Source: Patescibacteria group bacterium
GTDB lineage: Bacteria > Patescibacteriota > Patescibacteriia > UBA2591 > UBA6264
Length of the DNA stretch: 64,000 nucleotides
Assembly: GCA_016784145.1 (NCBI GenBank)
Contig: JADHVF010000002.1
Span: forward strand, 112,357 to 176,356
Reading direction: 5' to 3'
The translations under genes were made by a program, and so were the position numbers. Under the pieces are notes generated by a model. That model did not search any database. It saw nothing but the letters and a program-made list of their open reading frames with translations, and was not told the DNA's origin. Shown here one piece after another: positions 38,315 through 63,644 of the stretch. Each line of letters starts with the position of its first letter. Within the stretch, counting starts at the first letter, position 1.

Positions 38315-39340
38315 ATGACAAAAAAAAATACTAAAAAAAATGAGCAAAATAAAAGAGAAAAAGCAACTGAAAATGCCATTGAACAAATAAGGTCAAAATA
38401 TGGTGAAGGAACAATAATGAGATTAAGGGAGGCAAAGCATCAAGCAACCGAAGTTATTTCAACTGGTTGTCTTTCACTTGATTTAGCATTAGGAGTAGGT
38501 GGTATTCCCAGAGGAAGAGTGACAGAAATTTTTGGACAAGAGATGAGCGGCAAATCAACTTTAGCACTTCATATTATTTCGCAGGCACAGAAAAAAGGAG
38601 GAATAGCTGCTTTTATTGATGCAGAACATGCCTTAGATCCTCAATATGCAGAGAGAATAGGAGTTAAAATTAATGATATGTTTATTTCACAACCAGATAG
38701 TGGAGAGCAAGCTTTAGAAATAGTTGAAACGCTTGTTCGCTCAAACGGGGTAGATATTATTGTAGTTGATTCCGTGGCAGCTTTAACCCCTAGAAGAGAA
38801 ATAGAAGGAGAAATGGGAGACCATCATATTGGCTTACAAGCAAGATTAATGAGTCAGGGGTTAAGAAAATTAACTAGTATTATTGGTAGAACAAAAACGT
38901 GTGTAATTTTTATTAATCAAATTAGAATGAGAATAGGAGTATTTTTTGGTAATCCAGAAACAACCACCGGGGGTATGGCCTTAAAGTTTTATTCTTCAGT
39001 TAGAATACATGTTAAGAAATTAGCTCAAATTAAAAGAAAAGATGAAGTAATAGGAAATAGAGTTAGGGCTAAAATTGTTAAGAACAAAGTAGCCCCGCCG
39101 TTTAAAACTTGTGATTTTGAAATTATTTATAACGAAGGCATATCTTATGCAGGCGATTTAATTAATCTTGGAGCTACCCATGGGTTGGTTATTAAAACAG
39201 GGAATACATTAAGTTATGACAAAGCCAAACTTGGCGTTGGGTGGGAAAAAGCAAAGAATTTTTTAAGAGATAATCCTAAAACAGCTAATAAGCTTAAAAA
39301 AGAAATTTTAACAGAAATAAGCAAGCAAGCAACAGAGTAG
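38315..39340 (+). CDS. recA: Recombinase RecA
   Basis: [32 protein letters not shown], and fully conserved loops L1 and L2. Confidence 0.97.
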
Positions 39341-39499
39341 AGAAGCAAAAAAATAAAAACATAAAAGCATTAAAAAATAAAAACAAAGCGATTAAGATAC
39401 AAAATACAATAACCAAATAATAATCAAGACATAAGATGCTCTCTTGTGTTCTGTTTCGCAGAATTTCGGCGGGCATGGCAATAATCAAGCAATAATCAA

Positions 39500-39545
39500 A
39501 ATATAAAAACCAAACAAATATTTTTTTGTTTGGTTATTGGTTATT
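39500..39545. terminator. Bidirectional rho-independent terminator between the convergent recA and Wzz-like genes
   Basis: AACCAAACAAA-tatttt-TTTGTTTGGTT: an 11-bp perfect stem flanked by an A-tract 5' and a T-rich tract 3'. Confidence 0.5.
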
Positions 39546-39616
39546 GTTTGCTCTGCTTATCTTGTTTATAGAGTTTGCAAAGGAATTTGTTTGTATCTTA
39601 TTTCTTGGAATTTGAT

Positions 39617-40597
39617 TTATTCTTCTTCTTTTTTAAAATATTCAGATCCAAAGGCATAAAATATTCCTGCAAACAATCCTAGTATGCCTCCAATCATCAC
39701 ATTTTGCTGTTTTTTCGGGCTGATTGGTGTTTCGGGTAAACTTGCCTCTACTTCTACTTCAGTAGGCTTGACTTCATAATTCTTTTCATGTTGTTTTTGC
39801 TGAATATCTTGCTCCAAGCTGATAAGTTTTTGTTCTAGGGTTAATAATTGAGCTTCTTTGTTTTCTTTTTGGTTTTTAGCTCCGGCTAAAAGATTAATAT
39901 AGCTTTGAGCAATTCTACCTTGTCCATCAGAATAAGCATTATTTCTTTTGTTAATTTCTTCTTCATATTTTTTGATATCTTGATCTAATCTCTCTAAGTC
40001 GGCTGTTGTTTTAACTTTGTCTTTATCTATTTTAGCTTTATCTAACTCAATTACACGTAATTCAGTATCAAGTGTTTTAGCTGCTTGAGCAAACATGTTT
40101 TCATGATAGGTTAACAAAATATCAGTCACAACCTTAACAATACTAACAGCTTTAGTAGGCGTATTGCTTTTCCCAATTATTTGAATGAATTGTGATTCTT
40201 GTTTGCCTTGATTAGGGTTGGCTATTTCAATCATTGATTTAATGTCATTGGTTGTTGATTGTTCTGAAAAATCAGTTGATGCTTGTAATTTGGTTCTTAT
40301 TTGTTTCAAGACAGTGTCTGTATTAAAGACGGATTTAATGTCTTCAAACTCTTGCAAGGTGGCATAAGAAAATCCTTTTTCTTTAGAAAGATAATTTTTG
40401 TTTTTGCCAATTTTAACTAAATTGCTGGCTTGATAAATAGGCGAGAGCATAAAACTAATTACAATAGAGATAATAATAGCAATTAAAAATATGCTTATAA
40501 TCTCTTTTTTTCTTTTTATAATGACATTAACATAATCTCTTAAGTCAATTTCATCTTCATGATATTGATTGTCTTGATCTTGATTTTCCATATTCAT
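39617..40597 (-). CDS. Polysaccharide co-polymerase / chain-length determinant (Wzz-like, PCP family)
   Basis: N-terminal TM helix, a long coiled-coil periplasmic region, and a C-terminal Gly-rich TM (VMIGGILGLFAGIFYAFG). Confidence 0.55.
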   Translation of the reverse strand: MNMENQDQDNQYHEDEIDLRDYVNVIIKRKKEIISIFLIAIIISIVISFMLSPIYQASNLVKIGKNKNYLSKEKGFSYATLQEFEDIKSVFNTDTVLKQIRTKLQASTDFSEQSTTNDIKSMIEIANPNQGKQESQFIQIIGKSNTPTKAVSIVKVVTDILLTYHENMFAQAAKTLDTELRVIELDKAKIDKDKVKTTADLERLDQDIKKYEEEINKRNNAYSDGQGRIAQSYINLLAGAKNQKENKEAQLLTLEQKLISLEQDIQQKQHEKNYEVKPTEVEVEASLPETPISPKKQQNVMIGGILGLFAGIFYAFGSEYFKKEEE

Positions 40598-40645
40598 ATA
40601 TTCTTATTATATTTATTATTTCTCTGTTTGTCAATATGCTGTTTT

Positions 40646-42520
40646 TTATTTAATATCAAGCAATTCTTTCATTTTTTTAACATCCATGTCTGCTAATGAT
40701 TGCTTTAATTCTTGTATTAGTTCTTTTATTTTAGTTTCATTAACTTTTTCAAGATGAGAAATAAATATTTTTTCATGCTTGGTTGGCTTTTCTTTGTCAA
40801 TCAGGATTTCTTCAAAAAGTTTTTCCCCCTGTCTAATCCCGCTATAAATAACAGGGATATCAATATCCGGTTCATAGCCAGCTAATTTAATCATTTCTTT
40901 GGCCAAATCAACAATTTTAATGGCTTGTCCCATGTCTAGTACAAAAACTTCACCACCTTGTCCAATTGCGCCTGACTGCATTATTAATAGACAAGCTTCA
41001 GCAGTAACCATAAAATATCTTTTCATCTCAGGATGAGTTACTTCAACTGGCCCACCTGTTTTGATTTGATTTTCAAATATTTTAACAACATTCCCTTGAG
41101 AGTCAAGAACATTTCCAAAGCGAACAGCAGAAAATTTTGTTTGGTTTTTGCTATTTAAACAGACACATATCATTTCACATATTCTTTTACTAGCTCCCAT
41201 TACAGAGGTTGGATTAATTGCTTTGTCAGTAGAAACCATTACAAATTTTTCAATTTTATTTTTAATAGAAGCTTGACCAACAGTTAAAGTACCAAAAATA
41301 TTATTTTTAATAGCTTCGTCCGGGTTTGATTCCATCATTGGTACATGTTTGTAGGCAGCTGCATGAAATACTATCTCTGGTTGATGTTTTTTAAATACAT
41401 TGTTAATTTTATTTTTATCACAAATATCAGCAATAATAAATATTTTACTGGCATCAGGGAATAATCTGTTTAATTTTTTTTCTAAATAAAATATAGCTGT
41501 TTCTCTTTGGTCTAAAGCTATTATTTTTTTAGGAGCAAATTTAATAATTTCTTCACATAACTGAGAGCCAATCGAACCAGCTGCTCCTGTTATTAAAATA
41601 GTTTTGTTGTTGATATAAGATTGGATTGCTTGAGTATCAATTTTTACTGGTTGACGTCCTAACAGGTCTTCAATAGAGATTTCTCTCAAATCTTTTAAGC
41701 TAATCTTTTCATCTAAAATTTCAGCCGTGCTAGGCAAGATTTTAATTTTTTGAATGCCTGCTTCGCGGCTAAGATTAACAGTATTTTTAATTATTTTTTT
41801 AGAAGCAGATGGCAAAGCAATTATTATCTCTTTTATTTGATGTTTTTTAATAATAACAGGTATATTTTTAATTCTTCCCAAAACTTTTATGCCATGAATT
41901 AATATATTTTGTTTCATGTGGTTGTCGTCAACAAATCCAACTGGCAGATAGGGGGTATTACCAGAAACAGTAATATGACGGGCTAATTGTTCGCCAGCTT
42001 CTCCAGCTCCGACAATAAGAACACGCTTCCCATTTTTTTTATTATTTGTCACCCCATTTTTAAATAAATGAGCATAAACTCTTTTAGCAAACCTAAATCC
42101 GCCAGTAGTTAGCAGACATAAAAACCCAGACACAAAGATAATTGAACGGGGAAAGCCGGTAAAGATTGTTTTGTCTCTAAAAATAAATAAAATGGCTCCA
42201 ATTGTTAAAAAGCCAATCATTACTGCTCTGAATAATTTTAATAATTCTCTAATGCTTATAAATGACCATGAAATAGAATAAAGTTTTTCCAGCGAAAATA
42301 AAAAAAGAATTATAGGCAAGCTCATGGCCACAAACCCTTTAATCATGGTATAATATTCAATAGGAATTTTTCCATCAAATCGTAATAAAAATCCTAAATA
42401 ACAAGCTAAAGAAATTAGAATAATATCAGTTACAACAAAAAAAATAGTTCTTTTTAAAGTTGTTCTTTCCCAAATTTTATCTTTTATTGTCATAAAATTT
42501 TTGAATTGATTTAATAACAT
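40646..42520 (-). CDS. Membrane-bound UDP-sugar 4,6-dehydratase/epimerase (CapD/PglF/WbpM family)
   Basis: N-terminal TM helices, two Rossmann folds (VLIVGAGEAGEQL, ILITGAAGSIGSQLCEEI), and SDR catalytic residues. The probable start is the Met at 42493. Confidence 0.85.
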   Translation of the reverse strand: MLLNQFKNFMTIKDKIWERTTLKRTIFFVVTDIILISLACYLGFLLRFDGKIPIEYYTMIKGFVAMSLPIILFLFSLEKLYSISWSFISIRELLKLFRAVMIGFLTIGAILFIFRDKTIFTGFPRSIIFVSGFLCLLTTGGFRFAKRVYAHLFKNGVTNNKKNGKRVLIVGAGEAGEQLARHITVSGNTPYLPVGFVDDNHMKQNILIHGIKVLGRIKNIPVIIKKHQIKEIIIALPSASKKIIKNTVNLSREAGIQKIKILPSTAEILDEKISLKDLREISIEDLLGRQPVKIDTQAIQSYINNKTILITGAAGSIGSQLCEEIIKFAPKKIIALDQRETAIFYLEKKLNRLFPDASKIFIIADICDKNKINNVFKKHQPEIVFHAAAYKHVPMMESNPDEAIKNNIFGTLTVGQASIKNKIEKFVMVSTDKAINPTSVMGASKRICEMICVCLNSKNQTKFSAVRFGNVLDSQGNVVKIFENQIKTGGPVEVTHPEMKRYFMVTAEACLLIMQSGAIGQGGEVFVLDMGQAIKIVDLAKEMIKLAGYEPDIDIPVIYSGIRQGEKLFEEILIDKEKPTKHEKIFISHLEKVNETKIKELIQELKQSLADMDVKKMKELLDIK

Positions 42521-43601
42521 ATTTCACTTGAGAAATAGTTAATTCTGGATACATTGGCAAAGACAATACTTGTTTACATATTTCTTCTGTTTTTGATAAA
42601 TATATCTTGTTTGGCATTAAAATAGGCTCTTTGTAAGTAGGGGCTGGCCAGGAAATCAATGTTTCTATTTTGGCTTCTTTGTCCAGATATTTTTTTAATT
42701 TGTCTCTATTAGTTGATTGAATAACATAATTTTGCCAGACATCAAAAAATTTTGAATCTTCAAAATTAGGAGTATTTATTTCTGAAATATCTTTTAATCC
42801 ATCATTATATAGTTTGGCAATTTGTTGTCGTTTTTTTATCCATGTTGGCAGATATTTTAATTTAATATCCAGTAATCCTGCTTGAACATTGTCTAATAAG
42901 GCAGTATAGCCATGAAAGTAAAACTTTCTGTTTTGTCTATCTTCGCCATTATAGCGTAATAGACGTATTTTCCTAGCGATTTTATCGTCATTGGTTGTAA
43001 CCATACCAGCATCACCAAATGCCCCGAGCATTTTAAATGGATACATTGAAAAGCAGCCTGTTATTCCGAATGTGCCAGCTTTTTTCCATTTATTTTTAAT
43101 TTTCATTTTAGCTCCAATTGCTTGGGCAGCATCTTCGACAACTATTAAATTATATTGCTTAGCAATTTTCATTATTTTTTCCATATCACACATCCTTCCA
43201 TTTAAATGGACAGGCAGAATAGCTTTTGTTTGTTTTGTTATGTTCTTGACTATTAAATCAGTATTCATATTGAAATCTTCGCCAACATCAATAAGTTTTG
43301 CTTCAGCATTTTGATGATAAATACAAGAAATACTAGCCATAAAAGTATGTCCAACAGTAATTACTTTGTCTTGCTTTTTTAGTCCAACTGCTTCCAGGGA
43401 AAGGGTTAGTGCATCTGTTCCAGAATTAACACCAATAGCATGCTTAACACCAATATATTTAGCAAAGTTTTTTTCAAATTTGACTAAATCTTGTCTCATA
43501 ATTAAATCTCCTCTTGAGAAAATATCATCAATTTTCTTAAGAAATTTTTTGCGATGGTCTTTGTATTGTTTTTCAGGATTAACAAATCGTACTTTATACA
43601 T
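42477..43601 (-). CDS. DegT/DnrJ/EryC1/StrS-family PLP-dependent sugar aminotransferase
   Basis: Family-typical N-terminus ...GVKHAIGVNSGTDALTLSL and the Lys-containing motif; 374 aa. Confidence 0.88.
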   Translation of the reverse strand: MYKVRFVNPEKQYKDHRKKFLKKIDDIFSRGDLIMRQDLVKFEKNFAKYIGVKHAIGVNSGTDALTLSLEAVGLKKQDKVITVGHTFMASISCIYHQNAEAKLIDVGEDFNMNTDLIVKNITKQTKAILPVHLNGRMCDMEKIMKIAKQYNLIVVEDAAQAIGAKMKIKNKWKKAGTFGITGCFSMYPFKMLGAFGDAGMVTTNDDKIARKIRLLRYNGEDRQNRKFYFHGYTALLDNVQAGLLDIKLKYLPTWIKKRQQIAKLYNDGLKDISEINTPNFEDSKFFDVWQNYVIQSTNRDKLKKYLDKEAKIETLISWPAPTYKEPILMPNKIYLSKTEEICKQVLSLPMYPELTISQVKYVIKSIQKFYDNKR

Positions 43602-43603
43602 AA

Positions 43604-44602
43604 TTATTTTAATAATTGTTTTACTTTTTTAATAATATCTTTGTAGGTTGTGTAATATTTCTTTTCAAGAGGGGCACTGGTTGGGGCAGGAGAATCAGGC
43701 AAGCAGACTCTTTTGATTGGTTTTTTTAGATACTTGAATCCTTTATCAGCAACCAAAGCAGAAATCTCTCCAGCAACTCCGCCAGTAAGCCAGGCTGCCT
43801 CAGCAATAATTAATTTCCCTGTTTTTTTAATAGAATTAATAATAATTGGGAGGTCTATTGGTTTAACAGTTCTGATATCAATTATTTCAGCATCAATTTT
43901 ATATTTTTTTAATTCTTCGCCTGCTTTTATGGCTTCATTGGCCATATACGATATTCCAACAATTGTGATATCTTTGCCTTTTTTTCTTATTACCCCTTTT
44001 CCAATTGGAACAGAGTATATTTTTTTTGGAACATTTTCTTTCAGTCCATAAAGCCATCTATCATCAATATATACTACAGGATTATTTGATTTAATGGCTG
44101 ATATCATTAATCCTTTAGCATCATATGGAGTAGCTGGCATTACAACTTGTAGTCCAGGAATATGAGCAAATAAAGATTGGAGTGCTTGAGAATGTTGGGC
44201 TCCTTGTTCACCTCCACGATTAATAATAGGCCAAATTACAACTGATGCGGTTGATTGTCCACCAAAAATATAGTCCCAATTAGCCGCTTGGTTTATTATT
44301 GGGTCTAATCCATAAATCATAAAATCCATTCTTGGATGAACTACAATTGGTCTCATGCCAGCAATACTTGCTCCAATGCCAGCTCCAGTAATAGCATTTT
44401 CAGAAACAGGTGTATCAATTACTCGTTCTTCTCCGTATTTTTCTAATAACCCATTACAAGTATTTCCAACATACCAGGGGCTTTTAACTCCTTGTCCAAT
44501 TAAAAAGACAGATTTGTCTTGACCCATTGCCTGATGGATTGCTTCATTAATTGCCAAACTATAAGTTAATAATCTTTGGTTTTTTTTATTTTTCATATAC
44601 AT
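43604..44602 (-). CDS. Thiamine-diphosphate-dependent 2-oxoacid dehydrogenase E1 beta-like subunit (transketolase pyrimidine-binding plus C-terminal domains)
   Basis: Transket_pyr motifs (VFLIGQGV, GIGASIAGMRPIVV) and a C-terminal transketolase_C fold. It is adjacent to an E1 alpha-like gene. Confidence 0.8.
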   Translation of the reverse strand: MYMKNKKNQRLLTYSLAINEAIHQAMGQDKSVFLIGQGVKSPWYVGNTCNGLLEKYGEERVIDTPVSENAITGAGIGASIAGMRPIVVHPRMDFMIYGLDPIINQAANWDYIFGGQSTASVVIWPIINRGGEQGAQHSQALQSLFAHIPGLQVVMPATPYDAKGLMISAIKSNNPVVYIDDRWLYGLKENVPKKIYSVPIGKGVIRKKGKDITIVGISYMANEAIKAGEELKKYKIDAEIIDIRTVKPIDLPIIINSIKKTGKLIIAEAAWLTGGVAGEISALVADKGFKYLKKPIKRVCLPDSPAPTSAPLEKKYYTTYKDIIKKVKQLLK

Positions 44603-45563
44603 GTTTTAATAATTCTCCTTGTTTTGGAAAATCACTTTTAAGTGTTAATTTATATGCTTTAATAATTTTTGAATTTAATTTTTTATATATATTGTTAATT
44701 GTTTGTTTGTTTAAAATATTTTTTTTCATTAATATTTTCTCAAAATTTTTAATTGGATCTTTTTTAGCCCATTTAATAACTTCTTTATTTGGTCTAATAT
44801 CAGTGTGTTCTCCTTGGATATTGTCATCAGGGCCAACATGTCCTCTCATTCGATATGTTAAGCACTCAATAAAAGAAGGCCCTTGGTTATTTTTGGCATA
44901 CTTTACCATGGTTTTAGTTGTGTTATAAACTTTTAAGACATCATTCCCTTGTACTTGTTTGGAAGGCATGTTATATGACTTGGCAAATTCATAGATTTTA
45001 GTATTAGCCAGACAATCTTTTATTGGCATGTGAGTTGAATATAGGTTATTTTCACAAACAAAAATAATTGGCAATTTTTTTAAAGAAGCAAAGTTTAATG
45101 ATTCATGTAAGACTCCTTCATCAACTGCTCCGTCGCCAAAAAAACTAATTGTTACTTTTTTGTCTTTGTTTATTTTTGATGATAAAGCTGCACCCAAAGC
45201 AAGCGAAATTGTAGCAGCTACCAACGGAACTGTTCCTAATAATCCGTGCTGGTTGTCAATTATATGCATTGACCCTCCTCTTCCTTTTGCACAGCCATCT
45301 TTTTTTCCAAAAATTTCAAGCATTAATTTATCAATGCTTCCTCCTTTGGCCAGATAATGTCCATGAGACCGATGATTTCCAAGAATATAATCATTGTCTG
45401 TTAAAGCAGCACAAACGCCAACAGCAACTGCTTCTTGTCCTGTATATAAATGGCAGGGAGTTTTAATTTCGCCTCTTAGAATTGGATCAACTAGACTTTC
45501 TTCAAACAACCTTATTTCTACCATTTTTTTATATAATTTTAATAAAAATTTTTTGTTTTCCAT
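44586..45563 (-). CDS. Thiamine-diphosphate-dependent 2-oxoacid dehydrogenase E1 alpha-like subunit
   Basis: E1_dh motifs GQEAVAVG, NHRSHGH, FFGDGAVDEG...LPIIFVCENNLYS (ThDP-binding GDG...N). Confidence 0.82.
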   Translation of the reverse strand: MENKKFLLKLYKKMVEIRLFEESLVDPILRGEIKTPCHLYTGQEAVAVGVCAALTDNDYILGNHRSHGHYLAKGGSIDKLMLEIFGKKDGCAKGRGGSMHIIDNQHGLLGTVPLVAATISLALGAALSSKINKDKKVTISFFGDGAVDEGVLHESLNFASLKKLPIIFVCENNLYSTHMPIKDCLANTKIYEFAKSYNMPSKQVQGNDVLKVYNTTKTMVKYAKNNQGPSFIECLTYRMRGHVGPDDNIQGEHTDIRPNKEVIKWAKKDPIKNFEKILMKKNILNKQTINNIYKKLNSKIIKAYKLTLKSDFPKQGELLKHVYEK

Positions 45564-45564
45564 A

Positions 45565-46158
45565 TTAATTTTTGATAATTTTTTTAATTGTTTTGAAAAT
45601 TATTTTTAAATCATTTAAAAATGACATTTGTTTGACATATTTTATTTGTAGTTTAACTTTTTTTGGTCTTATTTCTTCTAAATAAGTTTTTTCAGGGTCA
45701 TGGCTATTTTTTAAGATTTCTCCTTCATTAGAATTCCATAATGATGCCAAGTCAGTTATTCCTGGTCTTATATTAAAGATAATTTGTTCGTCCTCTTTAT
45801 ATAGTTTAGCATATTCAGGCACTTCTGGTCTAGGGCCAACCAAGCTCATTTCTCCCTTAATTACATTAAATAACTGAGGAAGTTCATCAATTTTGTATTT
45901 TCTTAAAAATTTTCCTGTTTTAGTTAATCGTATGTCATTATTAGGAGTCGAAGGCCCTCCTATTTTATTAGCATTTAAAACCATTGTACGAAACTTATAA
46001 ACATTAAATGGTTTTTTATTTTTACCAATACGAATTCCTTTATAAATAACAGGGCCATTAGATGTTATTTTTATTAGCATTGTAATGATAATAAAAACAG
46101 GGGATAGAATAATTATCCCTATTAAGGAAAAACAAATATCAAAAATTCGTTTAATCAT
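45565..46158 (-). CDS. Small monotopic phosphoglycosyl transferase (Bac_transf family, PglC/WbaP C-domain-like); probably the initiating sugar-1-P transferase
   Basis: N-terminal re-entrant helix and the conserved MSLVGPRPE / ...RPG.T motifs. Confidence 0.85.
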   Translation of the reverse strand: MIKRIFDICFSLIGIIILSPVFIIITMLIKITSNGPVIYKGIRIGKNKKPFNVYKFRTMVLNANKIGGPSTPNNDIRLTKTGKFLRKYKIDELPQLFNVIKGEMSLVGPRPEVPEYAKLYKEDEQIIFNIRPGITDLASLWNSNEGEILKNSHDPEKTYLEEIRPKKVKLQIKYVKQMSFLNDLKIIFKTIKKIIKN

Positions 46159-46934
46159 TTTTTTGAAAAAATAAAGACAATCTTAAAAGCATATTTTTTA
46201 ATCCAGTTATTTTTTAATAATATATAATCTATTTTATCTAAAAATTTGAATATTTTTTTCCCTATTAAAAAATTTCTAAATGGGAACAAAAACATTGCTA
46301 ATAAATGAAAATAAGATATTTTTTCTATATTAAAATATTTTTTAGCAAATTTTAAATCTTTGTCTTTAATAATATGCTCCACTGCCCACTTGGTTCTAAT
46401 TCCTCTTTTTTTATTTAGCCATCGCTTTATATTTATTAAGGGGTTATGTCCAAAGGTTTCTATGCCAATTAATTTTCCATTTGATTTTAAGATTCTATTT
46501 AATTCAGGGAATGCTTTTTTTATATTAAGAGAAGAAAATGTCCCTCCATCCCATATAATATCAAAATAATTATCAGGAAATTCAGTCTTTTCGCAATCTC
46601 CTTTAATAAATTTTATTTTGTGGTTTATTTTTTCTTGTTCGGCTCTTTTTTTTGCGATTTGTAATGATTTGTTTGATAAATCAATACCATAAACTTTTGC
46701 TCCTAATTTTGCCAGCAAAATAGAATGCATGCCATGCCCACAACCATAATCTAAGATTTTCATATTAGAAGTGATATTTTGTTTCAACCAGTTTTTACAA
46801 AAATTATAACTTAAAAGCATGTTAATATTATAATTTTCAATATCTTTGTCCCAGTTATTTTTATTTTTTTTCTTGATCCATCTTTCAGATAATTTTTCAT
46901 AGTGAGAAATTTCCTCTTTTTTTCTTTGTTTCAT
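46155..46934 (-). CDS. Class I SAM-dependent methyltransferase (paralog A)
   Basis: SAM motif ILDYGCGHG...GAKVYGIDLS. The C-terminal half is paralogous to the ORF at 48220-49002 (shared EFPDNYFDII, RTKW..H...K). Confidence 0.8.
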   Translation of the reverse strand: MKQRKKEEISHYEKLSERWIKKKNKNNWDKDIENYNINMLLSYNFCKNWLKQNITSNMKILDYGCGHGMHSILLAKLGAKVYGIDLSNKSLQIAKKRAEQEKINHKIKFIKGDCEKTEFPDNYFDIIWDGGTFSSLNIKKAFPELNRILKSNGKLIGIETFGHNPLINIKRWLNKKRGIRTKWAVEHIIKDKDLKFAKKYFNIEKISYFHLLAMFLFPFRNFLIGKKIFKFLDKIDYILLKNNWIKKYAFKIVFIFSKK

Positions 46935-48219: not shown

Positions 48220-49002
48220 TTATTTTTTTGGATTAGAAAGGATAAAAACAGTTTGCCAGGCCAGCCATTTTATAATTGGAATTCTAAGTATTATTGAATC
48301 AATTTTTTCAAAAAATGTTAAAACAAAATTAAATATTTTTAAATTTCGAAAAGGTACAGCTAATACAGTAAAAAGGTGAAAGAATTTAATATCATCAATT
48401 TTGTTGAAATATTTTTTTGCATCCATTATAGCTTTTTTGTTCAAAATATGGTTCATTTCCCATTTTGTTCTTAAATGGGGTGTTAATTTTCTATATAAAT
48501 GAAAAATTGGATTATATACAAGCGGTTCATTACATATGATTTTCCCATTTGGTTTAATAACCCTTTTTAATTCTATATATGCTTTGTTTATGTCAAGATG
48601 ATGTAACATTCCAATGCATGTAATAATATCAAAATAATTATCTGGGAATTCAAGCTTTTCAGCATCCATAATTAAAAAAATTGGCTTCTTTTTGATATTA
48701 TTATTGGCTGCTGATTTTTTACAATTTTGAATAGAGACATCAGAGATATCTATGCCAAATGAATAAGCATTATTTTTTGCTAAAAAAATAGCCATATCCC
48801 CATCTCCACAACAATAATCTAGTGTTTTTTTATTAGAACAGTTTTTAATTAACCAATTATTAACAAAATTTCTACTTTTTCTAGTGATTGAATATATTTT
48901 TTTATTTGAAGTTAAGTGTTTATGTTGAGATGCATTCTTTTCTAATTTTTTATCTCTGACTTTGTTATGAAATGTTTTTTCTTCATGTTTTCTTTTTTCC
49001 AT
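48220..49002 (-). CDS. Class I SAM-dependent methyltransferase (paralog B)
   Basis: SAM motif LDYCCGDGDMAIFLAKNNAYSFGIDIS; paralogous to the ORF at 46155-46934. Confidence 0.8.
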   Translation of the reverse strand: MEKRKHEEKTFHNKVRDKKLEKNASQHKHLTSNKKIYSITRKSRNFVNNWLIKNCSNKKTLDYCCGDGDMAIFLAKNNAYSFGIDISDVSIQNCKKSAANNNIKKKPIFLIMDAEKLEFPDNYFDIITCIGMLHHLDINKAYIELKRVIKPNGKIICNEPLVYNPIFHLYRKLTPHLRTKWEMNHILNKKAIMDAKKYFNKIDDIKFFHLFTVLAVPFRNLKIFNFVLTFFEKIDSIILRIPIIKWLAWQTVFILSNPKK

Positions 49003-54267: not shown

Positions 54268-55554
54268 TTAAATTTTTATTTTTAATTTTTTCCAAGTAAA
54301 AATTTTTAAATAAAGAATGCCTAAGATAAATGACGTTCCAGTAGCTATTGCGGCTCCATACATTCCAAAAACAGGGATAAGTATTAAATTTAAGATAATA
54401 TTACTTATAAAAAATAAAGATACAAAAAATGTTTGATACCCAGGAAATCCTGTTTGTGTAAGAAGCATTCTGAAAGGGGCATAGCCAACACAGATAATTT
54501 GAAACAAAATTAAAATAGAGAATATTGGCCATGCTTTTGAAAATTCGGTTTTTATTTTTAATAAGGAAAGCATTAGAGGAAAGAGAAAAATAGATAACAC
54601 CCCTATAGGAAACATAATTTTATATGTAAGATTTCTTCCACTAGATATTAAAGATTTTAATGCTTGTTTTGTTTTTTTAAATTTGTATCTAGCTAAAAGA
54701 GGATTAATATTTATTTTAAAAGCAGCTGTTAGCTGGTCAAATCCTTCAGCCAATATTGCAGCTAAGCTATAGATGCCAACAGTACTGTCTGATACAAAAA
54801 AGCCCAACATAATAATATCAGTTCTTGTGTTTAAGTCTAGTAAAGCATGTCCTAGCAATCCTTTGACGCCAAATTTAATGTGTTTAATAATCCATTGTAT
54901 TATTTTTTTAGAAAAAGAATATTTTATAAATTTAATACTATAAATAAAAAGTATAACAAAAGTAATTCCTTCAGCTAAAGAAAATATAACAGGCAATTTA
55001 TTTACATCAATTTTTAAATAGATGAAAAGAATAAGAGATAGTAATAATAAACAAAATCTTATTATATTTATGCTTGCATAAAATTTCATTTTGCGACAAG
55101 CATTATAAAATGATAAATATATTTTGTTTATTGCTAGGAAGAATAGCCCAGGTAATCCATAATAAATACCAATACTAACAGATGGGCTATTTAGCAGAAT
55201 GCCAATAAAGTCTTTTAGCCAAAAGACAGATATTGAAATTAAAAAAGAAATAATAATAGTTAAATACAAGGAAGACGAAAATATAATATTTTTTTTATTG
55301 TAATCAGTATGGAATTGAGAAACATTTTTCAAGACAGATAGATGGATTCCTGCTACAGAAAGTTGAGAGAAAAAAATAAAAAAAGCATATACTTGATTAA
55401 AAACTCCAAGGACCGAAGTATTGTAGAATTTAGCAATAATAATGTTTAATAAAATTCCAATTATTCCCATTATTACGAAGCTTAAAATATTCCAACTAAC
55501 ATCAATATTAAATTTTTGAGAAGTTGGTATTTTATTTAAAATTTTTTTTAACAT
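54268..55554 (-). CDS. wzx: Oligosaccharide flippase (Wzx, MOP superfamily)
   Basis: About 12 TM helices in 428 aa, with the polysaccharide-biosynthesis-protein N-terminal pattern; it sits inside the glycan cluster. Confidence 0.7.
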   Translation of the reverse strand: MLKKILNKIPTSQKFNIDVSWNILSFVIMGIIGILLNIIIAKFYNTSVLGVFNQVYAFFIFFSQLSVAGIHLSVLKNVSQFHTDYNKKNIIFSSSLYLTIIISFLISISVFWLKDFIGILLNSPSVSIGIYYGLPGLFFLAINKIYLSFYNACRKMKFYASINIIRFCLLLLSLILFIYLKIDVNKLPVIFSLAEGITFVILFIYSIKFIKYSFSKKIIQWIIKHIKFGVKGLLGHALLDLNTRTDIIMLGFFVSDSTVGIYSLAAILAEGFDQLTAAFKININPLLARYKFKKTKQALKSLISSGRNLTYKIMFPIGVLSIFLFPLMLSLLKIKTEFSKAWPIFSILILFQIICVGYAPFRMLLTQTGFPGYQTFFVSLFFISNIILNLILIPVFGMYGAAIATGTSFILGILYLKIFTWKKLKIKI

Positions 55555-55564
55555 AAAATACTTT

Positions 55565-56122
55565 TTATTCTCTTTTTTTAATTACCTTGCATGGTACACC
55601 AACAGCGATTGAATATGGAGGAATATTCTTAGTAACAACAGCCCCTGCTCCAATTATTGATCCTTTTCCAATTTTTACTCCTTTGTTTATAATGACATGT
55701 CCTCCAATCCAAACATCGTCTTCAATAATTACTTTTCCTATAATAAATCCTTGTTCAGCGATTAATTTATCAGAATCTGTTTTATGGTCAGCAGTATTAA
55801 TCATTGTTCTAGCTGCGATTCTTACTCCTTTGCCAATCTTTACTTCCCCTGTTCCATCAATGATTACCCCTTCATTTAAAGAACACTTTTCTCCAATTTT
55901 TACATTCCAGGGGAAATAAATATTAACCATTTCTCCGATATAAGATGTTTTTAAATTTCTTCCCATGAATAATTTTAAAACAAGATAACGAAGATAATTA
56001 CATAAAGGGAATGGAATATATTTAACCATTCCATACAAAGCAAAATAAATTGCATGAATGAAATAATTTTTAAAATTATGCATTTTATTTCTTGGAAGAT
56101 ATTTTGTTTTTTTTGAATTCAT
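55565..56122 (-). CDS. Hexapeptide-repeat (left-handed beta-helix) acyl/acetyltransferase
   Basis: C-terminal hexad repeats ([42 protein letters not shown]) and a terminal ...GVPCKVIKK. The probable start is the Met at 56122, not 56215. Confidence 0.8.
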
Positions 56123-56127
56123 TTTTA

Positions 56128-59172: not shown

Positions 59173-60445
59173 ATTTTCTATTTAAGTTTTCTTTTGGTAA
59201 TAAATATAATAATAATAAAGCGAGTAAAAGGCCGTGCGTGATAAAGGCAGTAAGCAAAGCTGTTCCTCGGATGGATAATATAAATGTTGCCAGAACTGCC
59301 ATTACTACTTTAATATTTTTTTTATAAGAAATATTGTCTATTAATTTTAGGATAAATGATAATATTATAGCCCATAACAGCATGCCTAAAAATCCAAAAT
59401 TTATGTATCCATCGCTAATAATTCCATTATTGGGATTACCTGCTGGGTTGCTTAAGTAGTTTTTTGCTATAAGTTTCGAGGGAGATAATTCATATGGATA
59501 ATTTATGAAATTTTGAAAAAAGTGATGCTGAGAAAGATATGTATATGGATTTTCTGAAAAAAAATCATAGTAAAAAAATGATAATTGTGCTGGCACTAGT
59601 AAACTTCGTCGTATAGCAAAAGAAGGGGGTAAGAGGTCATTTGTTGTGTAATAAATTAGTACACTTAACAATATTAATCCGATCAAGCTAATTGTTATTC
59701 TTGAATAAAAGTTTTTTTTATTTAAAGCCCAAATTAATACTAATATAAATGGTAATATGAATAAATATAATTTATTTCCTGTTCCAGAAAATAACAATAT
59801 TTGAAGCAATGTGGTTAATATAAGTAATCCCCATTTTTTTTTAATTAAAAATATTGTAAAAAATAAAGGTCCTATAATTTTTGCAAACCAATTTAATGTA
59901 TAATTAGCAAGTAAGACATGTAGATTAGCATAGCTAGAGCGTATTTCATATACATTTCTGATATTAAAATTTATTTGGAATCCTAAGTATTTATAAATAA
60001 AAATAAAAGATAAAGTTGAAATAATGATAAATATTGTCCATATAATAGCTTTAGATTGTTTTATTTTTTTAATATTTAATTTAAGAGGGATAGCTTGTAT
60101 TATCAAAGAAATTATTATCCAGAAAAAAGTGGAGGCATACATAAAGATTCTTGATTCATCCATTAGGCAGAAAAGAGTAAGCATTGGAATATAAGATATT
60201 AAAAATAGCATCCATAAAATTATATGAGATGGTTTTTTTGTTTTTTTAGGAATGAGAACAAAAACAATGAAAAGTAATAAATATGATTCAATTAATTTAA
60301 AAGAATTAGGTTGAAATACAAACTTAGAGTAAGCCCAAAAAGGAGAAATAATCAAATAATAGGATAGATCTAAAATAACTCTATAAATAATTATAAGAGT
60401 AAATATTTTTATTTTGTTTTTTTTAATTACTAATGCTTTTAGCAT
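59165..60445 (-). CDS. O-antigen polymerase/ligase-like polytopic membrane protein (Wzy-like)
   Basis: More than ten TM helices, a large loop near the C-terminal third, and a neighbouring wzx and GTs. No enzymatic motifs can be assigned. Confidence 0.5.
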   Translation of the reverse strand: MLKALVIKKNKIKIFTLIIIYRVILDLSYYLIISPFWAYSKFVFQPNSFKLIESYLLLFIVFVLIPKKTKKPSHIILWMLFLISYIPMLTLFCLMDESRIFMYASTFFWIIISLIIQAIPLKLNIKKIKQSKAIIWTIFIIISTLSFIFIYKYLGFQINFNIRNVYEIRSSYANLHVLLANYTLNWFAKIIGPLFFTIFLIKKKWGLLILTTLLQILLFSGTGNKLYLFILPFILVLIWALNKKNFYSRITISLIGLILLSVLIYYTTNDLLPPSFAIRRSLLVPAQLSFFYYDFFSENPYTYLSQHHFFQNFINYPYELSPSKLIAKNYLSNPAGNPNNGIISDGYINFGFLGMLLWAIILSFILKLIDNISYKKNIKVVMAVLATFILSIRGTALLTAFITHGLLLALLLLYLLPKENLNRKYE

Positions 60446-61811
60446 CTTTATTTATTTTATTTATTGGAATAACCAAATATTTTTCTTTTGAGATTAATTT
60501 ATAAAAATTTTCAAAGAGTCTTTTCCATTTAGGCGTGAATAATTCAGTCATATAACAATTATGCCAAAGAAAAACAAAAATACCGTTATAATTTTTAGTC
60601 TGATTCAATAATTTAATTATTTCTTTAAAAGCCTCAGAATAAGATAATTTTTTATTGTCTAGAGTTCCATCCATAACAATTAATGGAATTTCCCAAATAT
60701 TTATAACTTTTTTTTTCAAAATATTGAAAGGCTTAAATGGATAACATACTCCACATCTGAATCCATTAAAATTTGCATAACATAATGTTGTGTCATATTT
60801 TAAGTCTGCATTTTCCCATGTTTCCCAACTTTTTGGTCCAGCCCATTTTAGATAATGTTGTCTGCCGCTAGTAATTTTTTTGTTGATAATTTTTTCAAAT
60901 TCTATTTTTTCTTTCTTTATAATTTTTGGATTATTATAGGCCCTGAATCCTGTCTGAATTCCTATTTCAAATTTTTCTTTTTTTAATTTTGCAATTATTT
61001 TTTTTAAAATAGGATTTGATAATAAATATCTTTTATTATCAGTCATAAAATAAAAAGATGATTTAAATTTGTATTTTTTTTCTAAATTGATTATATAATT
61101 TAGAAAAATATCATGGTATGGATCGTTTTTTAGTTTTATTTTTACTTTAATATAATCAAACAAAATTTTTATTAATTTTTTAAAAGCCAATTTTTTAATT
61201 GTTTTTTTAATGGCAATTAGTGGTGGATACCATTTATATCTATCAATTTCATCAACATCATGAGTTAGACAAATAGTAAATTTTCTTTTCTTTCTTGTTT
61301 GTTTTATTTTTAAAAATTTTAACATATTCCAGAGCATTTCTGTATATTCATTTGTTATTGGTCTATGCAAAAATTTTTGTTTATAGGCTAGTGATTCTGT
61401 TGGTATAAATCTGTTATATTTATCTCGTTTTTTTATAACATATTCTTCCCATCTAGTAAGCATAAAAAAACAAGAAGCAAATATATCTATTTTGCAAATA
61501 ATTTTATTGTCAGATATTTCTAATGCATTGTCTCCATATATAATTGGTAAATTTTTTTTTGAGGCAAATTTATTATTGGATTTTTGAAGAGGTAATTGAG
61601 CTATATTTTGAGTAGATAAGTAATTTTGATTTTTAAAATTAGAAAAAAACGAATCCTTAATGATTAATTCTTTTTTGTTTCCTAAAATAATTTTATAATC
61701 GTTTTGATTGTAAGTTTCAATTTGATATTTTAATCCTAAAAATTCATTAAATAAGGTTGATATAATATATTTTCTTTCTGCCAAAAAATTGTTTGGGATT
61801 TTAATTATCAT
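60423..61811 (-). CDS. Hypothetical protein; the C-terminal half is possibly a divergent polysaccharide deacetylase/carbohydrate-esterase-like domain
   Basis: Weak NodB-like signatures (LTHDVDEID, GRQHYLKW, VFLWHN). Low confidence. Confidence 0.3.
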   Translation of the reverse strand: MIIKIPNNFLAERKYIISTLFNEFLGLKYQIETYNQNDYKIILGNKKELIIKDSFFSNFKNQNYLSTQNIAQLPLQKSNNKFASKKNLPIIYGDNALEISDNKIICKIDIFASCFFMLTRWEEYVIKKRDKYNRFIPTESLAYKQKFLHRPITNEYTEMLWNMLKFLKIKQTRKKRKFTICLTHDVDEIDRYKWYPPLIAIKKTIKKLAFKKLIKILFDYIKVKIKLKNDPYHDIFLNYIINLEKKYKFKSSFYFMTDNKRYLLSNPILKKIIAKLKKEKFEIGIQTGFRAYNNPKIIKKEKIEFEKIINKKITSGRQHYLKWAGPKSWETWENADLKYDTTLCYANFNGFRCGVCYPFKPFNILKKKVINIWEIPLIVMDGTLDNKKLSYSEAFKEIIKLLNQTKNYNGIFVFLWHNCYMTELFTPKWKRLFENFYKLISKEKYLVIPINKINKDAKSISN

Positions 61812-61822
61812 TATAGTATTAT

Positions 61823-62734
61823 TTATTTTTTAATTTTATATATGATCATGGATATTATTTGTTTTAAGGAATTATTTTTTATTTTATTCATTATATTATA
61901 AAAATTTACCATAATATAGTTTCCTTTAGAAAATGTCCATTTTAATCTACAGCTTTTGCATCCAGGGTTATAGCAAAGAATAAACTCAGGAGTTTTTAAA
62001 AGTTTGGTTATTTCTATCTTTAAAGTTTTTTTCATACTAGTTGTTTTTGCATAAGCATCTCCTAATTTTCCTTCAGATAAAATTGCATTAAAATTTTTAT
62101 ATAATGGCAAAAACTTTCTAAAACCAGAAACACATGCTTCTGGCCAATTAATTTTAAAAAGTTTAATATCACCATTTTTATTAATATAATTTATTCCTAA
62201 ATTGCGTTGTTTTTTTTGTTTTAACCCGGCTAATTTTATTGCTACATGAGTTGTCCCAACCCCGACTATCTTGTTATCTTTTCCTATATTTAAATTTTTT
62301 GCATTTTTATTTGACATTATCCGTAATGGATTATAAGCAAAATTATTTGCTGTATGATTTTGCATCAAGTTCTTGGCATCATGCCCTATTGCTACAAATT
62401 TTTGAATTGGGTGATGACTACGAAACATTTTTGGATGATTTACCATTGTATTAACAAATATTCCAGCATATGAATGTGTTTTATTGTTGCTAATTTTCTT
62501 CCAATTTTTCTTTGAAAGAGGGAGTTTATAGCAAGAAACAAAAGCTTCAGAGACAATGGTGCCCGTTTCTCCAATTATATCAAGAAGCGCTTCAATCAAC
62601 GTATTGGCCCCTCCTTTAATTGGTCCAATTGATTTCATTGAAACTTTCAGGTTAACTAGATCTCCCTTTTTGAGTCCTAAATTATATAGATCTTTTATTA
62701 TTGTTTCCTTGTTATGTTTATGTTTTTGTTTCAT
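61823..62734 (-). CDS. AAC(3)-family (aminoglycoside 3-N-acetyltransferase-like) acyl-CoA N-acyltransferase
   Basis: The N-terminus LYNLGLKKGDLVNLKVSMKSIGPIKGGANTLIEALLDIIGETGT matches the Antibiotic_NAT (PF02522) signature. Confidence 0.7.
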   Translation of the reverse strand: MKQKHKHNKETIIKDLYNLGLKKGDLVNLKVSMKSIGPIKGGANTLIEALLDIIGETGTIVSEAFVSCYKLPLSKKNWKKISNNKTHSYAGIFVNTMVNHPKMFRSHHPIQKFVAIGHDAKNLMQNHTANNFAYNPLRIMSNKNAKNLNIGKDNKIVGVGTTHVAIKLAGLKQKKQRNLGINYINKNGDIKLFKINWPEACVSGFRKFLPLYKNFNAILSEGKLGDAYAKTTSMKKTLKIEITKLLKTPEFILCYNPGCKSCRLKWTFSKGNYIMVNFYNIMNKIKNNSLKQIISMIIYKIKK

Positions 62735-63644
62735 TATTTTTTCTATAATTTTGAAAAGAAATTATTGCTTTGTGCTTGTTAATTGTTTTCTTTGCTTTTT
62801 CAATTGTTGGTGGAGAAATAAAAATATTATTATATACTGCTATGCCTCTATTTGTTTTTATTGCTCTGTTGTGTAATTTAATAATTTCTTGAGCTTCTGT
62901 TATTTCTTTTTTTGAAGGAGTATATAGTTTTTCTACTATTGGAATTTCGCGAGGAGACATGACTAACATGCCTTCGAATCCTACTTGTTTTGCTTGTTTA
63001 ATATGTTCTTTTAGGCCTTCAAAATTACCTATATCAACATAAGGTGTATCAATTGCTGATATTTTTGCTGCTTTGGCAGCCATAGAAATCATGTGTCTTG
63101 GGACTAATATTGATGTTCCGATAGAATTATGTTCACCTTCTGTTTCTTGCAAAAAATCTTCACTCCCAAAAAGGAGTCCTTTTATTCTGGGTGACGAAAA
63201 AGCTATGTTATAAACATCAAGGACAGCTTCAGGAGTCTCAATAAGCGCTATAATATTAAAGTATCCTATAGGCAGTTTTAACTCTTTTTCTTTGGTGGCC
63301 AATTTTTCACTGAATAATTTAATGCATTTTGTATTATAGATTTTTGGGAATACAAATCCAGTAAGATTTTTAGATGCTATAGCATTTATGTCTTTTGACA
63401 AAAAGCCACTTTCTATTGAATTGACCCTAACATAAATTGGCCGATTATCTACAATATTAGATTCTAGGACTTTTTTGATCATTTTCCTTGCTTTGCTTTT
63501 ACTGTTTTTAGGAGTTGCATCTTCAAGGTCCAGAACCACTACATCTGCATTAGTAGAAAATGCTTTTTTAATGTATTTTTCATTATGCCCAGCACTGAAT
63601 AAAAGGGTTCTTATTATTAATTTTTTTGAATATTTTTTTTTCAT
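62718..63644 (-). CDS. HpcH/HpaI aldolase / citrate lyase beta subunit (CitE)-like (acyl-CoA lyase family)
   Basis: IRTLLFSAGHNEKYIKKAFSTNADVVVLDLEDA matches the CitE N-terminal motif (R..L.VPG........KA....AD.V..DLEDA); about 300 aa TIM barrel. Confidence 0.7.
   Translation of the reverse strand: MKKKYSKKLIIRTLLFSAGHNEKYIKKAFSTNADVVVLDLEDATPKNSKSKARKMIKKVLESNIVDNRPIYVRVNSIESGFLSKDINAIASKNLTGFVFPKIYNTKCIKLFSEKLATKEKELKLPIGYFNIIALIETPEAVLDVYNIAFSSPRIKGLLFGSEDFLQETEGEHNSIGTSILVPRHMISMAAKAAKISAIDTPYVDIGNFEGLKEHIKQAKQVGFEGMLVMSPREIPIVEKLYTPSKKEITEAQEIIKLHNRAIKTNRGIAVYNNIFISPPTIEKAKKTINKHKAIISFQNYRKNNETKT

Follow-up and report, generated by a model that had tools for sequence, protein, structure and literature searches.

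Two-carbon branches on the sugars of several antibiotics are formed by enzymes of the E1 alpha/beta type, designated 'alpha-keto acid dehydrogenase 2' (alpha-KADH2), which place pyruvate-derived C2 units on keto sugars as tertiary alpha-hydroxy ketones (PMC12247030). The present analysis concerns an E1 alpha/beta gene pair at positions 43604-45563 of a 64-kb window (the whole stretch of DNA analysed) from a metagenome-assembled genome (MAG) of Patescibacteria, where it is part of a glycan operon. A preliminary description of the locus had cited E1 homologues proposed to attach a pyruvate-derived C2 branch to keto sugars, and the literature confirms this activity, for one enzyme in vitro (PMC12247030). 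By analogy with such enzymes, the pair is interpreted here, with a probability of about 0.6, as a lipoyl-independent E1 alpha2beta2-type carboligase serving the first lipid-linked sugar of a Wzx/Wzy glycan.

Described branching enzymes and the studied locus

For aldgamycin, branching by an alpha-KADH2 enzyme is supported by gene knockout and feeding, while for KbDH-alpha/beta of kibdelomycin biosynthesis an in vitro assay with pyruvate and sugar-like ketones is reported; about 120 clusters with alpha-KADH2-type enzymes have been mined (PMC12247030). The E1 homologues Pau11/12 were proposed to add the C4 acetyl branch in paulomycin, and the aldo-keto reductase Pau7 was shown to reduce the acetyl branch to hydroxyethyl (PMC4753412). 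Together with AviB1/AviB2 (avilamycin) and AlmDI/AlmDII (aldgamycin), Pau11/12 represent E1 homologues for which an acetyl branch at C4 or C3 is either proposed or supported by knockout and feeding. Once formed, the branch ketone can be reduced (paulomycin, trioxacarcin, avilamycin), methylated, oxidised or, in kibdelomycin, transaminated (PMC12247030), and acetyl branches are regarded as starting points for reductases, transaminases or oxygenases (PMC9306805). Pyruvate is so far the sole donor of E1-type branching enzymes, and formation of tertiary alcohols from ketones in vitro has also been described for Ao:DCPIP oxidoreductase (PMC12247030).

The review cited above assigns single-chain YerE-like enzymes to the sugars of lipopolysaccharide (LPS), and E1-type and transketolase-type enzymes to secondary metabolites (PMC12247030). 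YerE and ErwE, acting in the biosynthesis of the LPS sugars yersiniose and erwiniose, resemble the activity proposed for the window in the carboligation, dependent on thiamine diphosphate (ThDP), of a 2-oxo acid onto a 4-keto-6-deoxy nucleotide sugar of a surface polysaccharide. However, they are single chains of the acetolactate-synthase-like decarboxylase superfamily and use a CDP-3,6-dideoxy sugar, whereas the window encodes a two-subunit E1 whose acceptor would be a UDP-N-acetylhexosamine (UDP-HexNAc) derivative.

The likeness to KbDH comprises an E1 pair without E2/E3 components, pyruvate as the donor, a keto sugar acceptor and a branch ketone that is transaminated, which corresponds to the combination of a dehydratase, an E1 pair and a DegT-family aminotransferase in the window. 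KbDH comes from the biosynthesis of an actinomycete antibiotic, where it forms a C3 branch, presumably on a deoxysugar nucleotide, while the acceptor in the window would be a 4-keto sugar derived from UDP-N-acetylglucosamine (UDP-GlcNAc) and starting a Wzx/Wzy glycan in uncultivated Patescibacteria. The alpha-KADH2 class in general shares with the window, in context and not by sequence comparison, an E1 pair without E2/E3 beside a 4,6-dehydratase in a sugar cluster. Unlike the paulomycin, avilamycin and aldgamycin pathways, the window has an aminotransferase in place of the reductase, and a phosphoglycosyl transferase (PGT) with polysaccharide export in place of an aglycone glycosyltransferase.

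The PglF-PglE-PglD-PglC pathway is similar in having a membrane-anchored dehydratase, a small PGT and a DegT-family aminotransferase in a compact cassette for the reducing-end sugar; in the window PglD is missing, the DegT protein is far from PglE and a ThDP enzyme is inserted. ThDP enzymes are unmentioned in a large survey of PGTs (PMC11626204). In the literature searched on O-antigens, exopolysaccharides (EPS) and PGTs, which did not cover the approximately 120 mined clusters of Krug et al. 2024, no E1- or transketolase-type module is described in a PglF/PGT cassette for the initiating sugar. A gene table for a strain-specific EPS region of Crocosphaera lists, with no comment, a sugar transferase, E1 beta, E1 alpha, an aldo/keto reductase and an O-methyltransferase (PMC3247675).

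The E1 alpha/beta pair

The segment 43604-45563 consists of exactly two minus-strand open reading frames (ORFs), both of full length. The two genes and their diagnostic motifs are as follows.

44586..45563, minus strand: E1 alpha, ThDP/diphosphate-binding subunit, 325 aa (Pfam E1_dh, 8.4e-70)
43604..44602, minus strand: E1 beta, pyrimidine-binding and C-terminal domains, 332 aa (Transket_pyr, 1.5e-27; Transketolase_C, 6.8e-34)
45045..45137, minus strand: ThDP motif GDGAVDEG...FVCENN (GDG-x26-NN), E1 alpha residues 143-173
44793..44846, minus strand: E1 alpha loop RGHVGPDDNIQGEHTDIR, directly after the catalytic His242 (residues 240-257)
44384..44404, minus strand: E1 beta SENAITG, with the ThDP-activating Glu68 and the clade-specific Asn69 and Thr72
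44459..44497, minus strand: E1 beta GQGVKSPWYVGNT, in place of the canonical GEDxxxxGGxF

The ThDP-binding and transketolase-like motifs of E1 that the preliminary description had recognised in these ORFs are present: the Pfam domains, the GDG-x26-NN motif and the catalytic residues were all found, and on each of these grounds the pair belongs to the heterotetrameric 2-oxo acid dehydrogenase E1 superfamily. Across 32 subfamily members the ThDP motif does not vary at G143, G145, E171, N172 and N173, and D144 is conserved in at least 90%. The catalytic histidine of E1 alpha is His242 in RGH, aligned to the histidine of human GHS, and the active-site histidine of E1 beta is His137 in AQHSQ. The architecture is that of E1; the single-chain layout of the decarboxylase superfamily (TPP_enzyme_N/M/C, as in YerE-like enzymes) was not found in the pair, in which the TPP_enzyme_C match is weak, partial and below the cut-off (7.8e-4, 19.7 bits).

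The best family matches are to E1 alpha and E1 beta of pyruvate dehydrogenase (PDH), that is, to the pyruvate type and not the branched-chain type, and every catalytic residue for reductive acetylation is kept. However, both subunits score under the curated cut-offs, E1 alpha with 320.4 bits against TIGR03182 (PDH E1 alpha, cut-off 393.85) and E1 beta with 309 bits against NF006667 (cut-off 321). The closest solved structures are human PDHA1 for E1 alpha (5.9e-47) and the Pyrobaculum E1 beta for E1 beta (3.9e-65), and the copy of the PDB that was searched contained no solved sugar-branching E1-type enzyme among the structural relatives of either subunit. The source MAG is annotated with 'thiamine pyrophosphate-dependent dehydrogenase E1 component subunit alpha' and 'alpha-ketoacid dehydrogenase subunit beta'. 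Searching with the E1 alpha protein gave more than 120 clusters of homologues, which are 56-67% identical and 310-374 aa long (most 324-330), and those with names include Thermodesulfovibrio, Elusimicrobiota, Brocadiaceae and Patescibacteria.

The genomic contexts of E1 alpha homologues fall into two separate groups. Of the loci flanked by 4 kb or more, 35 carried glycan genes and 7 carried E2/E3, while none carried both. A neighbour-joining tree of 75 E1 alphas, crude in that it was built from BLOSUM distances without support values, placed all E2/E3-linked sequences in one clade apart from the glycan clades, and the E1 alpha of the window inside a large clade with glycan contexts only. Clustering with ordinary E2/E3-linked E1, the outcome that the preliminary description had set against its own proposal, is therefore not seen. 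Outside the glycan contexts, the closest relatives (42-46% identity) are of the acetoin type and linked to E2/E3; those at 40-41% have E2, E3 and lipoate ligase or lipoyl synthase as neighbours. In a plasmid collection the best matches reached about 41% identity, and the one context inspected (H1) was E2-linked. AcoA/AcoB and PdhA/PdhB have the same fold and the same ThDP and catalytic residues at 40-46% identity, but are encoded together with lipoyl E2 and E3 (L008, L075, L081, L084, L085 and L100; loci are cited by such numbers throughout), as members of the window clade never are, and they lack both the loop insertion after the catalytic histidine and the altered beta motifs of this clade.

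The loop amounts to an insertion of 5-6 residues relative to human PDHA1 and to the E2/E3-linked relatives. Its form is GHVGPDDNIQGxHTDIRP, and GH[VIL]GPDD occurs in 99 of the best 120 homologues. Its counterpart in PDH E1 is 'phosphorylation loop A', a wall of the active-site channel. Glycan-type E1 alphas also have HRSHGH and GC(S/A)xGRGGSMH, as opposed to HRGHGH and GYCKGKGGSMH in E2/E3-linked relatives. In E1 beta, Gly38 is found in 100% of the glycan-context sequences and Asp at this position in 100% of the E2/E3-linked ones. Further gains relative to the latter are Asn69 and Thr72 beside the catalytic Glu, His89, Arg129, which is eight residues ahead of the catalytic His137, and Arg182. 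The gained arginines and histidine would suit a nucleotide-diphosphate ligand, although this is only a lead.

Because the scores lie below the cut-offs, the gene neighbourhood is conserved, E2/E3 are absent from the eight loci described below and the clade is separate, neither the pair nor its large clade is an ordinary component of a dehydrogenase complex. The pair is very probably a lipoyl-independent ThDP enzyme of a glycan pathway.

The cassette and its operon

The host operon occupies about 24 kb of the minus strand. Towards its end, in the order of transcription, genes for Wzy, Wzx and several glycosyltransferases are followed by an Asn-synthase-like amidotransferase, a methyltransferase, a class I/II aminotransferase, a second methyltransferase, the PGT, E1 alpha, E1 beta, the DegT protein, the PglF/CapD dehydratase and Wzz. 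The genes closest to the pair are listed below.

46155..46934, minus strand: methyltransferase dependent on S-adenosylmethionine (SAM; Methyltransf_11), recurring in most related cassettes immediately ahead of the PGT gene
45565..46158, minus strand: small monotopic PGT, PglC-like, 197 aa (Bac_transf, 1.6e-62)
42477..43601, minus strand: DegT-family aminotransferase dependent on pyridoxal phosphate, 374 aa (DegT_DnrJ_EryC1, 7.7e-93)
40646..42520, minus strand: UDP-GlcNAc 4,6-dehydratase of the PglF/CapD/WbpM type, membrane-anchored, 624 aa (Polysacc_synt_2, 5.1e-109; CoA_binding_3)

The PGT contains the catalytic dyad motif DELPQ and the PGITDxASLW motif common to the PGTs of these cassettes, its orthologues in which are 56-73% identical, and the dehydratase has both the catalytic motif STDKA and the NAD motif GAAGSIG. 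A single nucleotide separates the PGT stop codon from the E1 alpha ATG, the two E1 genes share 17 nt, with AAGGAG ahead of the beta ATG, 2 nt lie between E1 beta and the DegT gene, and the latter overlaps the dehydratase gene by 44 nt. The translational coupling to sugar-modifying genes reported previously is evident from these distances, but the order given then was reversed, as transcription runs along the minus strand and puts the PGT upstream of the pair and the DegT and CapD genes downstream. The reported lack of E2 and E3 in the locus agrees with a tblastn search, confined to the 64-kb window, that found no E2, E3 or aldo-keto reductase (best E-value 0.12).

A contig search with the single E1 alpha protein yielded just 5 loci, its patterns being too specific. 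In five genomic contexts inspected among the homologues from the protein search, the E1 pair, DegT and CapD were always present and E2/E3 never; a methyltransferase and PGT were immediately upstream in four, and in L003 a MraY/WecA-family transferase and a class I/II aminotransferase instead. A metagenome scan with the subfamily alignment added 80 further loci, for which ORFs were called and clustered and the cluster representatives annotated. Close relatives, defined by E1 alpha identity of at least 53% and flanks of no less than 2.5 kb on the upstream and 5 kb on the downstream side, numbered eight. DegT and CapD were present in 8/8, a small PGT in 7/8 and E2/E3 in 0/8, and the eighth locus had an initiating transferase of PF00953 in place of the small PGT. 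The carriers belong to Nitrospirota (Thermodesulfovibrio), Elusimicrobiota, Planctomycetota (Brocadiaceae), Omnitrophota and Patescibacteria. The arrangement methyltransferase-PGT-E1 alpha-E1 beta-DegT-CapD is a cassette conserved across at least five phyla, and among the loci compared a PglD-type acetyltransferase is not part of it.

The association of this cassette with ThDP enzymes was also seen from the side of the aminotransferase. Six DegT homologues (58-69% identity), chosen for long contigs only and blind to E1, all adjoin a CapD-type dehydratase and a gene of the ThDP family. This gene is an E1 alpha/beta pair in L095 and L096, and in two other loci a split transketolase at the exact position of E1 (L094:4692-5991 and L098:4374-5740), made up of Transketolase_N (about 270 aa) and Transket_pyr (about 167 aa) without the C-terminal domain. 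The remainder of both transketolase loci is orthologous to the window, with identities of 62-63% for the PGT, 58-69% for DegT, 51-56% for CapD, 65-70% for the class I/II aminotransferase and 54-59% for the methyltransferase. Since a transketolase can replace the E1 pair, the cassette therefore needs a ThDP-bound C2 carbanion and not a dehydrogenase complex; such a two-carbon carbanion is common to E1 and transketolase, while lipoyl chemistry is not. The tailoring gene is exchanged as well. Three loci with E1 alpha at 44-47% identity (L051, L052 and L074) have the order PGT-aldo-keto reductase-E1 alpha-E1 beta(-CapD), in which the reductase is present and DegT absent, resembling the combination of Pau7 with Pau11/12 in paulomycin and the gene set of the Crocosphaera EPS region.

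The DegT protein of the window retains the Schiff-base lysine, Lys190 in FSMYPFK. Its best solved relatives are 7B0D (1.2e-83), 5U1Z (WlaRG, 2.7e-72), QdtB, DesV and WbpE; the last three are C3-aminotransferases, and matches to their group span 1e-54 to 1e-84. The match to PglE of C. jejuni (1O61/4ZTC) is only 1.4e-28, and that to PseC 2.7e-23. By sequence, the protein is nearer to C3-type than to PglE-type aminotransferases. The Archaeoglobus veneficus protein 7B0D was considered as a branch transaminase and dropped; its family is common in Thermococcales and Methanocaldococcus and is probably WbpE-like. A role as a ColD/E1-type 3-dehydratase, as in the yersiniose route, was rejected because the Schiff-base lysine is present.

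Some non-lipoyl E1 pairs at 42-48% identity lie in other surroundings. In L058, L069, L077 and L079 they accompany HldE (heptose kinase/adenylyltransferase) and short-chain dehydrogenases/reductases, with two DegTs and a zinc-dependent alcohol dehydrogenase in some, and in L038, L067 and L080 a radical-SAM/SPASM protein and GT2. These loci may represent other pathways to branched or higher-carbon sugars.

Further genes of the operon are as follows.

48220..49002, minus strand: second SAM methyltransferase paralogue (Methyltransf_11), with orthologues upstream of the PGT in L017, L025, L094 and L098
46939..48210, minus strand: class I/II aminotransferase, 423 aa (Aminotran_1_2, 2e-57)
39617..40597, minus strand: Wzz chain-length determinant, final operon gene (Wzz, 6.7e-12)
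54268..55554, minus strand: Wzx-type flippase (Polysacc_synt, 2e-14)
62718..63644, minus strand: HpcH/HpaI aldolase or citrate-lyase-beta-like protein, first operon gene (HpcH_HpaI, 2.6e-41)
61823..62734, minus strand: aminoglycoside-3-N-acetyltransferase-like protein (Antibiotic_NAT), operon opening
60423..61811, minus strand: DUF7033 protein, operon opening

The two methyltransferase paralogues are 42% identical, flank the class I/II aminotransferase gene and each end in a hydrophobic C-terminal tail. The aminotransferase itself is accessory, being present in about half of the cassettes (orthologues in L003, L013, L020, L022, L028, L094, L095, L096 and L098), and the position of Wzz is likewise filled in L003 and L096. 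The trio of HpcH/HpaI, Antibiotic_NAT and DUF7033 genes that opens the operon did not recur in the related loci. An HpaI-type aldolase could make a longer 2-oxo acid available as donor, in the manner of the erwiniose pathway. A role in phosphonate (2-aminoethylphosphonate) biosynthesis was rejected, since there is no phosphoenolpyruvate mutase and the first operon gene is of the HpcH/HpaI type instead.

The glutamine amidotransferase or Asn-synthase-like gene (52263-54263, minus strand) encodes a protein of a kind, 616-666 aa long, that is found again a few genes ahead of the cassette in L001, L003, L032 and L057 and may amidate a carboxyl group of the glycan. A hexapeptide acetyltransferase ORF with a TTG start (55565-56215, minus strand) overlaps the upstream GT2 gene (56128-57081) by 88 nt, and its true start is probably an internal ATG (MNSKKTKYL...). 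The sign of the GC skew changes at 39000-40700, where the plus-strand rpoB/rpoC block with its upstream genes meets the minus-strand glycan operon, the two being transcribed convergently. The 5' half of the glycan operon has a lowered G+C content of 21-27%, compared with about 30% elsewhere.

Proposed pathway, alternatives and implications

In the proposed pathway the PglF/CapD-type dehydratase would, as expected from its family, convert UDP-GlcNAc to UDP-2-acetamido-2,6-dideoxy-hexos-4-ulose. The E1 pair would decarboxylate pyruvate to hydroxyethylidene-ThDP, the usual chemistry of its family, and the carbanion, having no lipoyl-E2 acceptor, would add to the C4 ketone to give a tertiary alcohol with a 4-C-acetyl branch, as analogy and context suggest. 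The DegT protein may then aminate the branch ketone to 4-C-(1-aminoethyl), a step taken in sister cassettes by the aldo-keto reductase instead, and the small PGT would move the sugar phosphate onto undecaprenyl phosphate. More speculatively, one or both neighbouring methyltransferases may methylate the product, and the class I/II aminotransferase could regenerate glutamate and supply pyruvate from alanine. Some steps could run on the lipid-linked sugar, because some small PGTs are known to pass on the 4-keto sugar as such, which is then processed further while lipid-bound (PMC11626204).

From the characterised E1-type branching enzymes of antibiotic pathways, we infer that the pair is probably a C2 carboligase acting on a 4-keto sugar. 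Amination of the branch by DegT is suggested by the kibdelomycin precedent, by the replacement of DegT with an aldo-keto reductase in sister cassettes and by the distance of DegT from PglE, and is put forward tentatively, at somewhat less than even odds. The two-carbon-branched sugar anticipated in the preliminary description is supported by the comparative evidence, but an acetyl or hydroxyethyl branch is probably not the end product and would be further aminated. The choice between amination of the branch and of C4, the roles of the methyltransferases and the order of the steps relative to lipid transfer are matters of interpretation.

Several points weigh against this scheme. Two of the six loci found through DegT, L097 (5946-6926) and L099 (3485-4534), have, beside DegT-CapD but on the other strand, an orthologue of E1 beta (59-60% identity), while E1 alpha is missing within 7 kb. 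Locus L025 (735-5622), with the order methyltransferase-PGT-aldo-keto reductase-E1 alpha-E1 beta-DegT, has both the reductase and DegT, so that a simple either/or tailoring of one ketone does not fit. In addition, DegT could be a C4 aminotransferase competing with E1 for the 4-keto sugar, since regiospecificity in this family is not strictly tied to phylogeny.

The best-supported alternative retains carboligation but assigns it other partners, either a longer or functionalised 2-oxo acid donor, for example from the HpcH/HpaI-type aldolase or the class I/II aminotransferase of the operon, or a sugar acceptor linked to undecaprenyl diphosphate. YerE-like LPS enzymes do use C4-C8 2-oxo acids made by aldolases (PMC9306805), an HpcH_HpaI protein opens the operon and the class I/II aminotransferase accompanies about half of the cassettes, while PGTs that transfer the 4-keto sugar and methyltransferases with hydrophobic C-termini would accord with a lipid-linked acceptor. 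However, none of the related loci has the HpcH gene, the E1-type branching enzymes described are confined to pyruvate, and the family matches are likewise of the pyruvate type. This alternative is considered unlikely.

A second alternative is that DegT makes a 4-amino sugar and the E1 pair, through acetyl-ThDP, acetylates the amine in lieu of PglD. The cassette does resemble PglF-PglE-[PglD]-PglC with the E1 pair in the slot of the acetyltransferase, no N-acetyltransferase is conserved in it, and acetyl-ThDP is in principle accessible to a transketolase- or phosphoketolase-type enzyme with no need of an oxidant. Yet the conversion of hydroxyethyl-ThDP to acetyl-ThDP by E1 requires oxidation, for which the conserved genes of the cassette offer neither an oxidant nor a redox partner, and the three loci with CapD and an aldo-keto reductase but no DegT would have no amine to acylate. 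DegT is, moreover, not PglE-like, Thermodesulfovibrio and Brocadiaceae would not be expected to be short of acetyl-CoA, and we know of no precedent for ThDP-dependent N-acylation of sugars. Such a role is accordingly improbable.

The pair might also be a simple decarboxylase that provides an acetaldehyde-like aldehyde or acetoin for another decoration of the glycan, with no C-C bond formed to the sugar. E1 components are known in general ThDP enzymology to release aldehydes and to form acetoin as side reactions, and many modifying enzymes of unassigned role are encoded in the operon. Against this, the invariant partners of the pair are a dehydratase forming a keto sugar and an enzyme tailoring a ketone, no partner for a free aldehyde is conserved, and the pair is so closely coupled in translation to the PGT and DegT that a single pathway is indicated, all of which leaves this possibility very small. 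An ordinary pyruvate or acetoin dehydrogenase E1 with E2/E3 encoded elsewhere, inserted or co-transcribed in the glycan operon by chance, is the least credible explanation, for its PDH-type family matches, retained catalytic residues and E2/E3-linked acetoin-type relatives are outweighed by the scores under the PDH cut-offs, the recurrence of the cassette in at least five phyla, the absence of E2/E3 from all eight loci with full flanks, the separate clade with no overlap of glycan and lipoyl contexts, and the substitution of a split transketolase for the pair.

The interpretation as a carboligase for the first lipid-linked sugar would have consequences beyond this locus. The kind of enzyme is already known from antibiotic sugars; what appears to be new is its setting in a cassette for the reducing-end sugar, its wide spread in uncultivated phyla and the interchangeability of the ThDP and tailoring modules. 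It is conceivable, although the odds are put at clearly less than even, that many uncultivated bacteria use a portable cassette with swappable ThDP and tailoring modules to start a surface glycan with a HexNAc-derived sugar that has a carbon-linked 1-aminoethyl branch at C4. The carriers would be Patescibacteria, Omnitrophota, Elusimicrobiota, Nitrospirota and anammox Planctomycetota, and the transketolase version would give a 1-amino-2-hydroxyethyl branch. No description of a polysaccharide with a C-linked 1-aminoethyl sugar was found in the literature searched.

E1 alpha/beta genes are routinely annotated as pyruvate or 2-oxo acid dehydrogenase, which leads to wrong metabolic reconstructions in, for example, Patescibacteria. 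Ketone-accepting carboligases are wanted for the production of chiral tertiary alcohols (PMC12247030), and the relatives of this pair would offer enzymologists a large and diverse set of them. The glycan could be solved in a culturable carrier, Thermodesulfovibrio (CP144374.1, L001). If the interpretation is true, E1-type C-branching is not confined to actinomycete antibiotics but would also be common in the glycan-starting sugar of several poorly known phyla.

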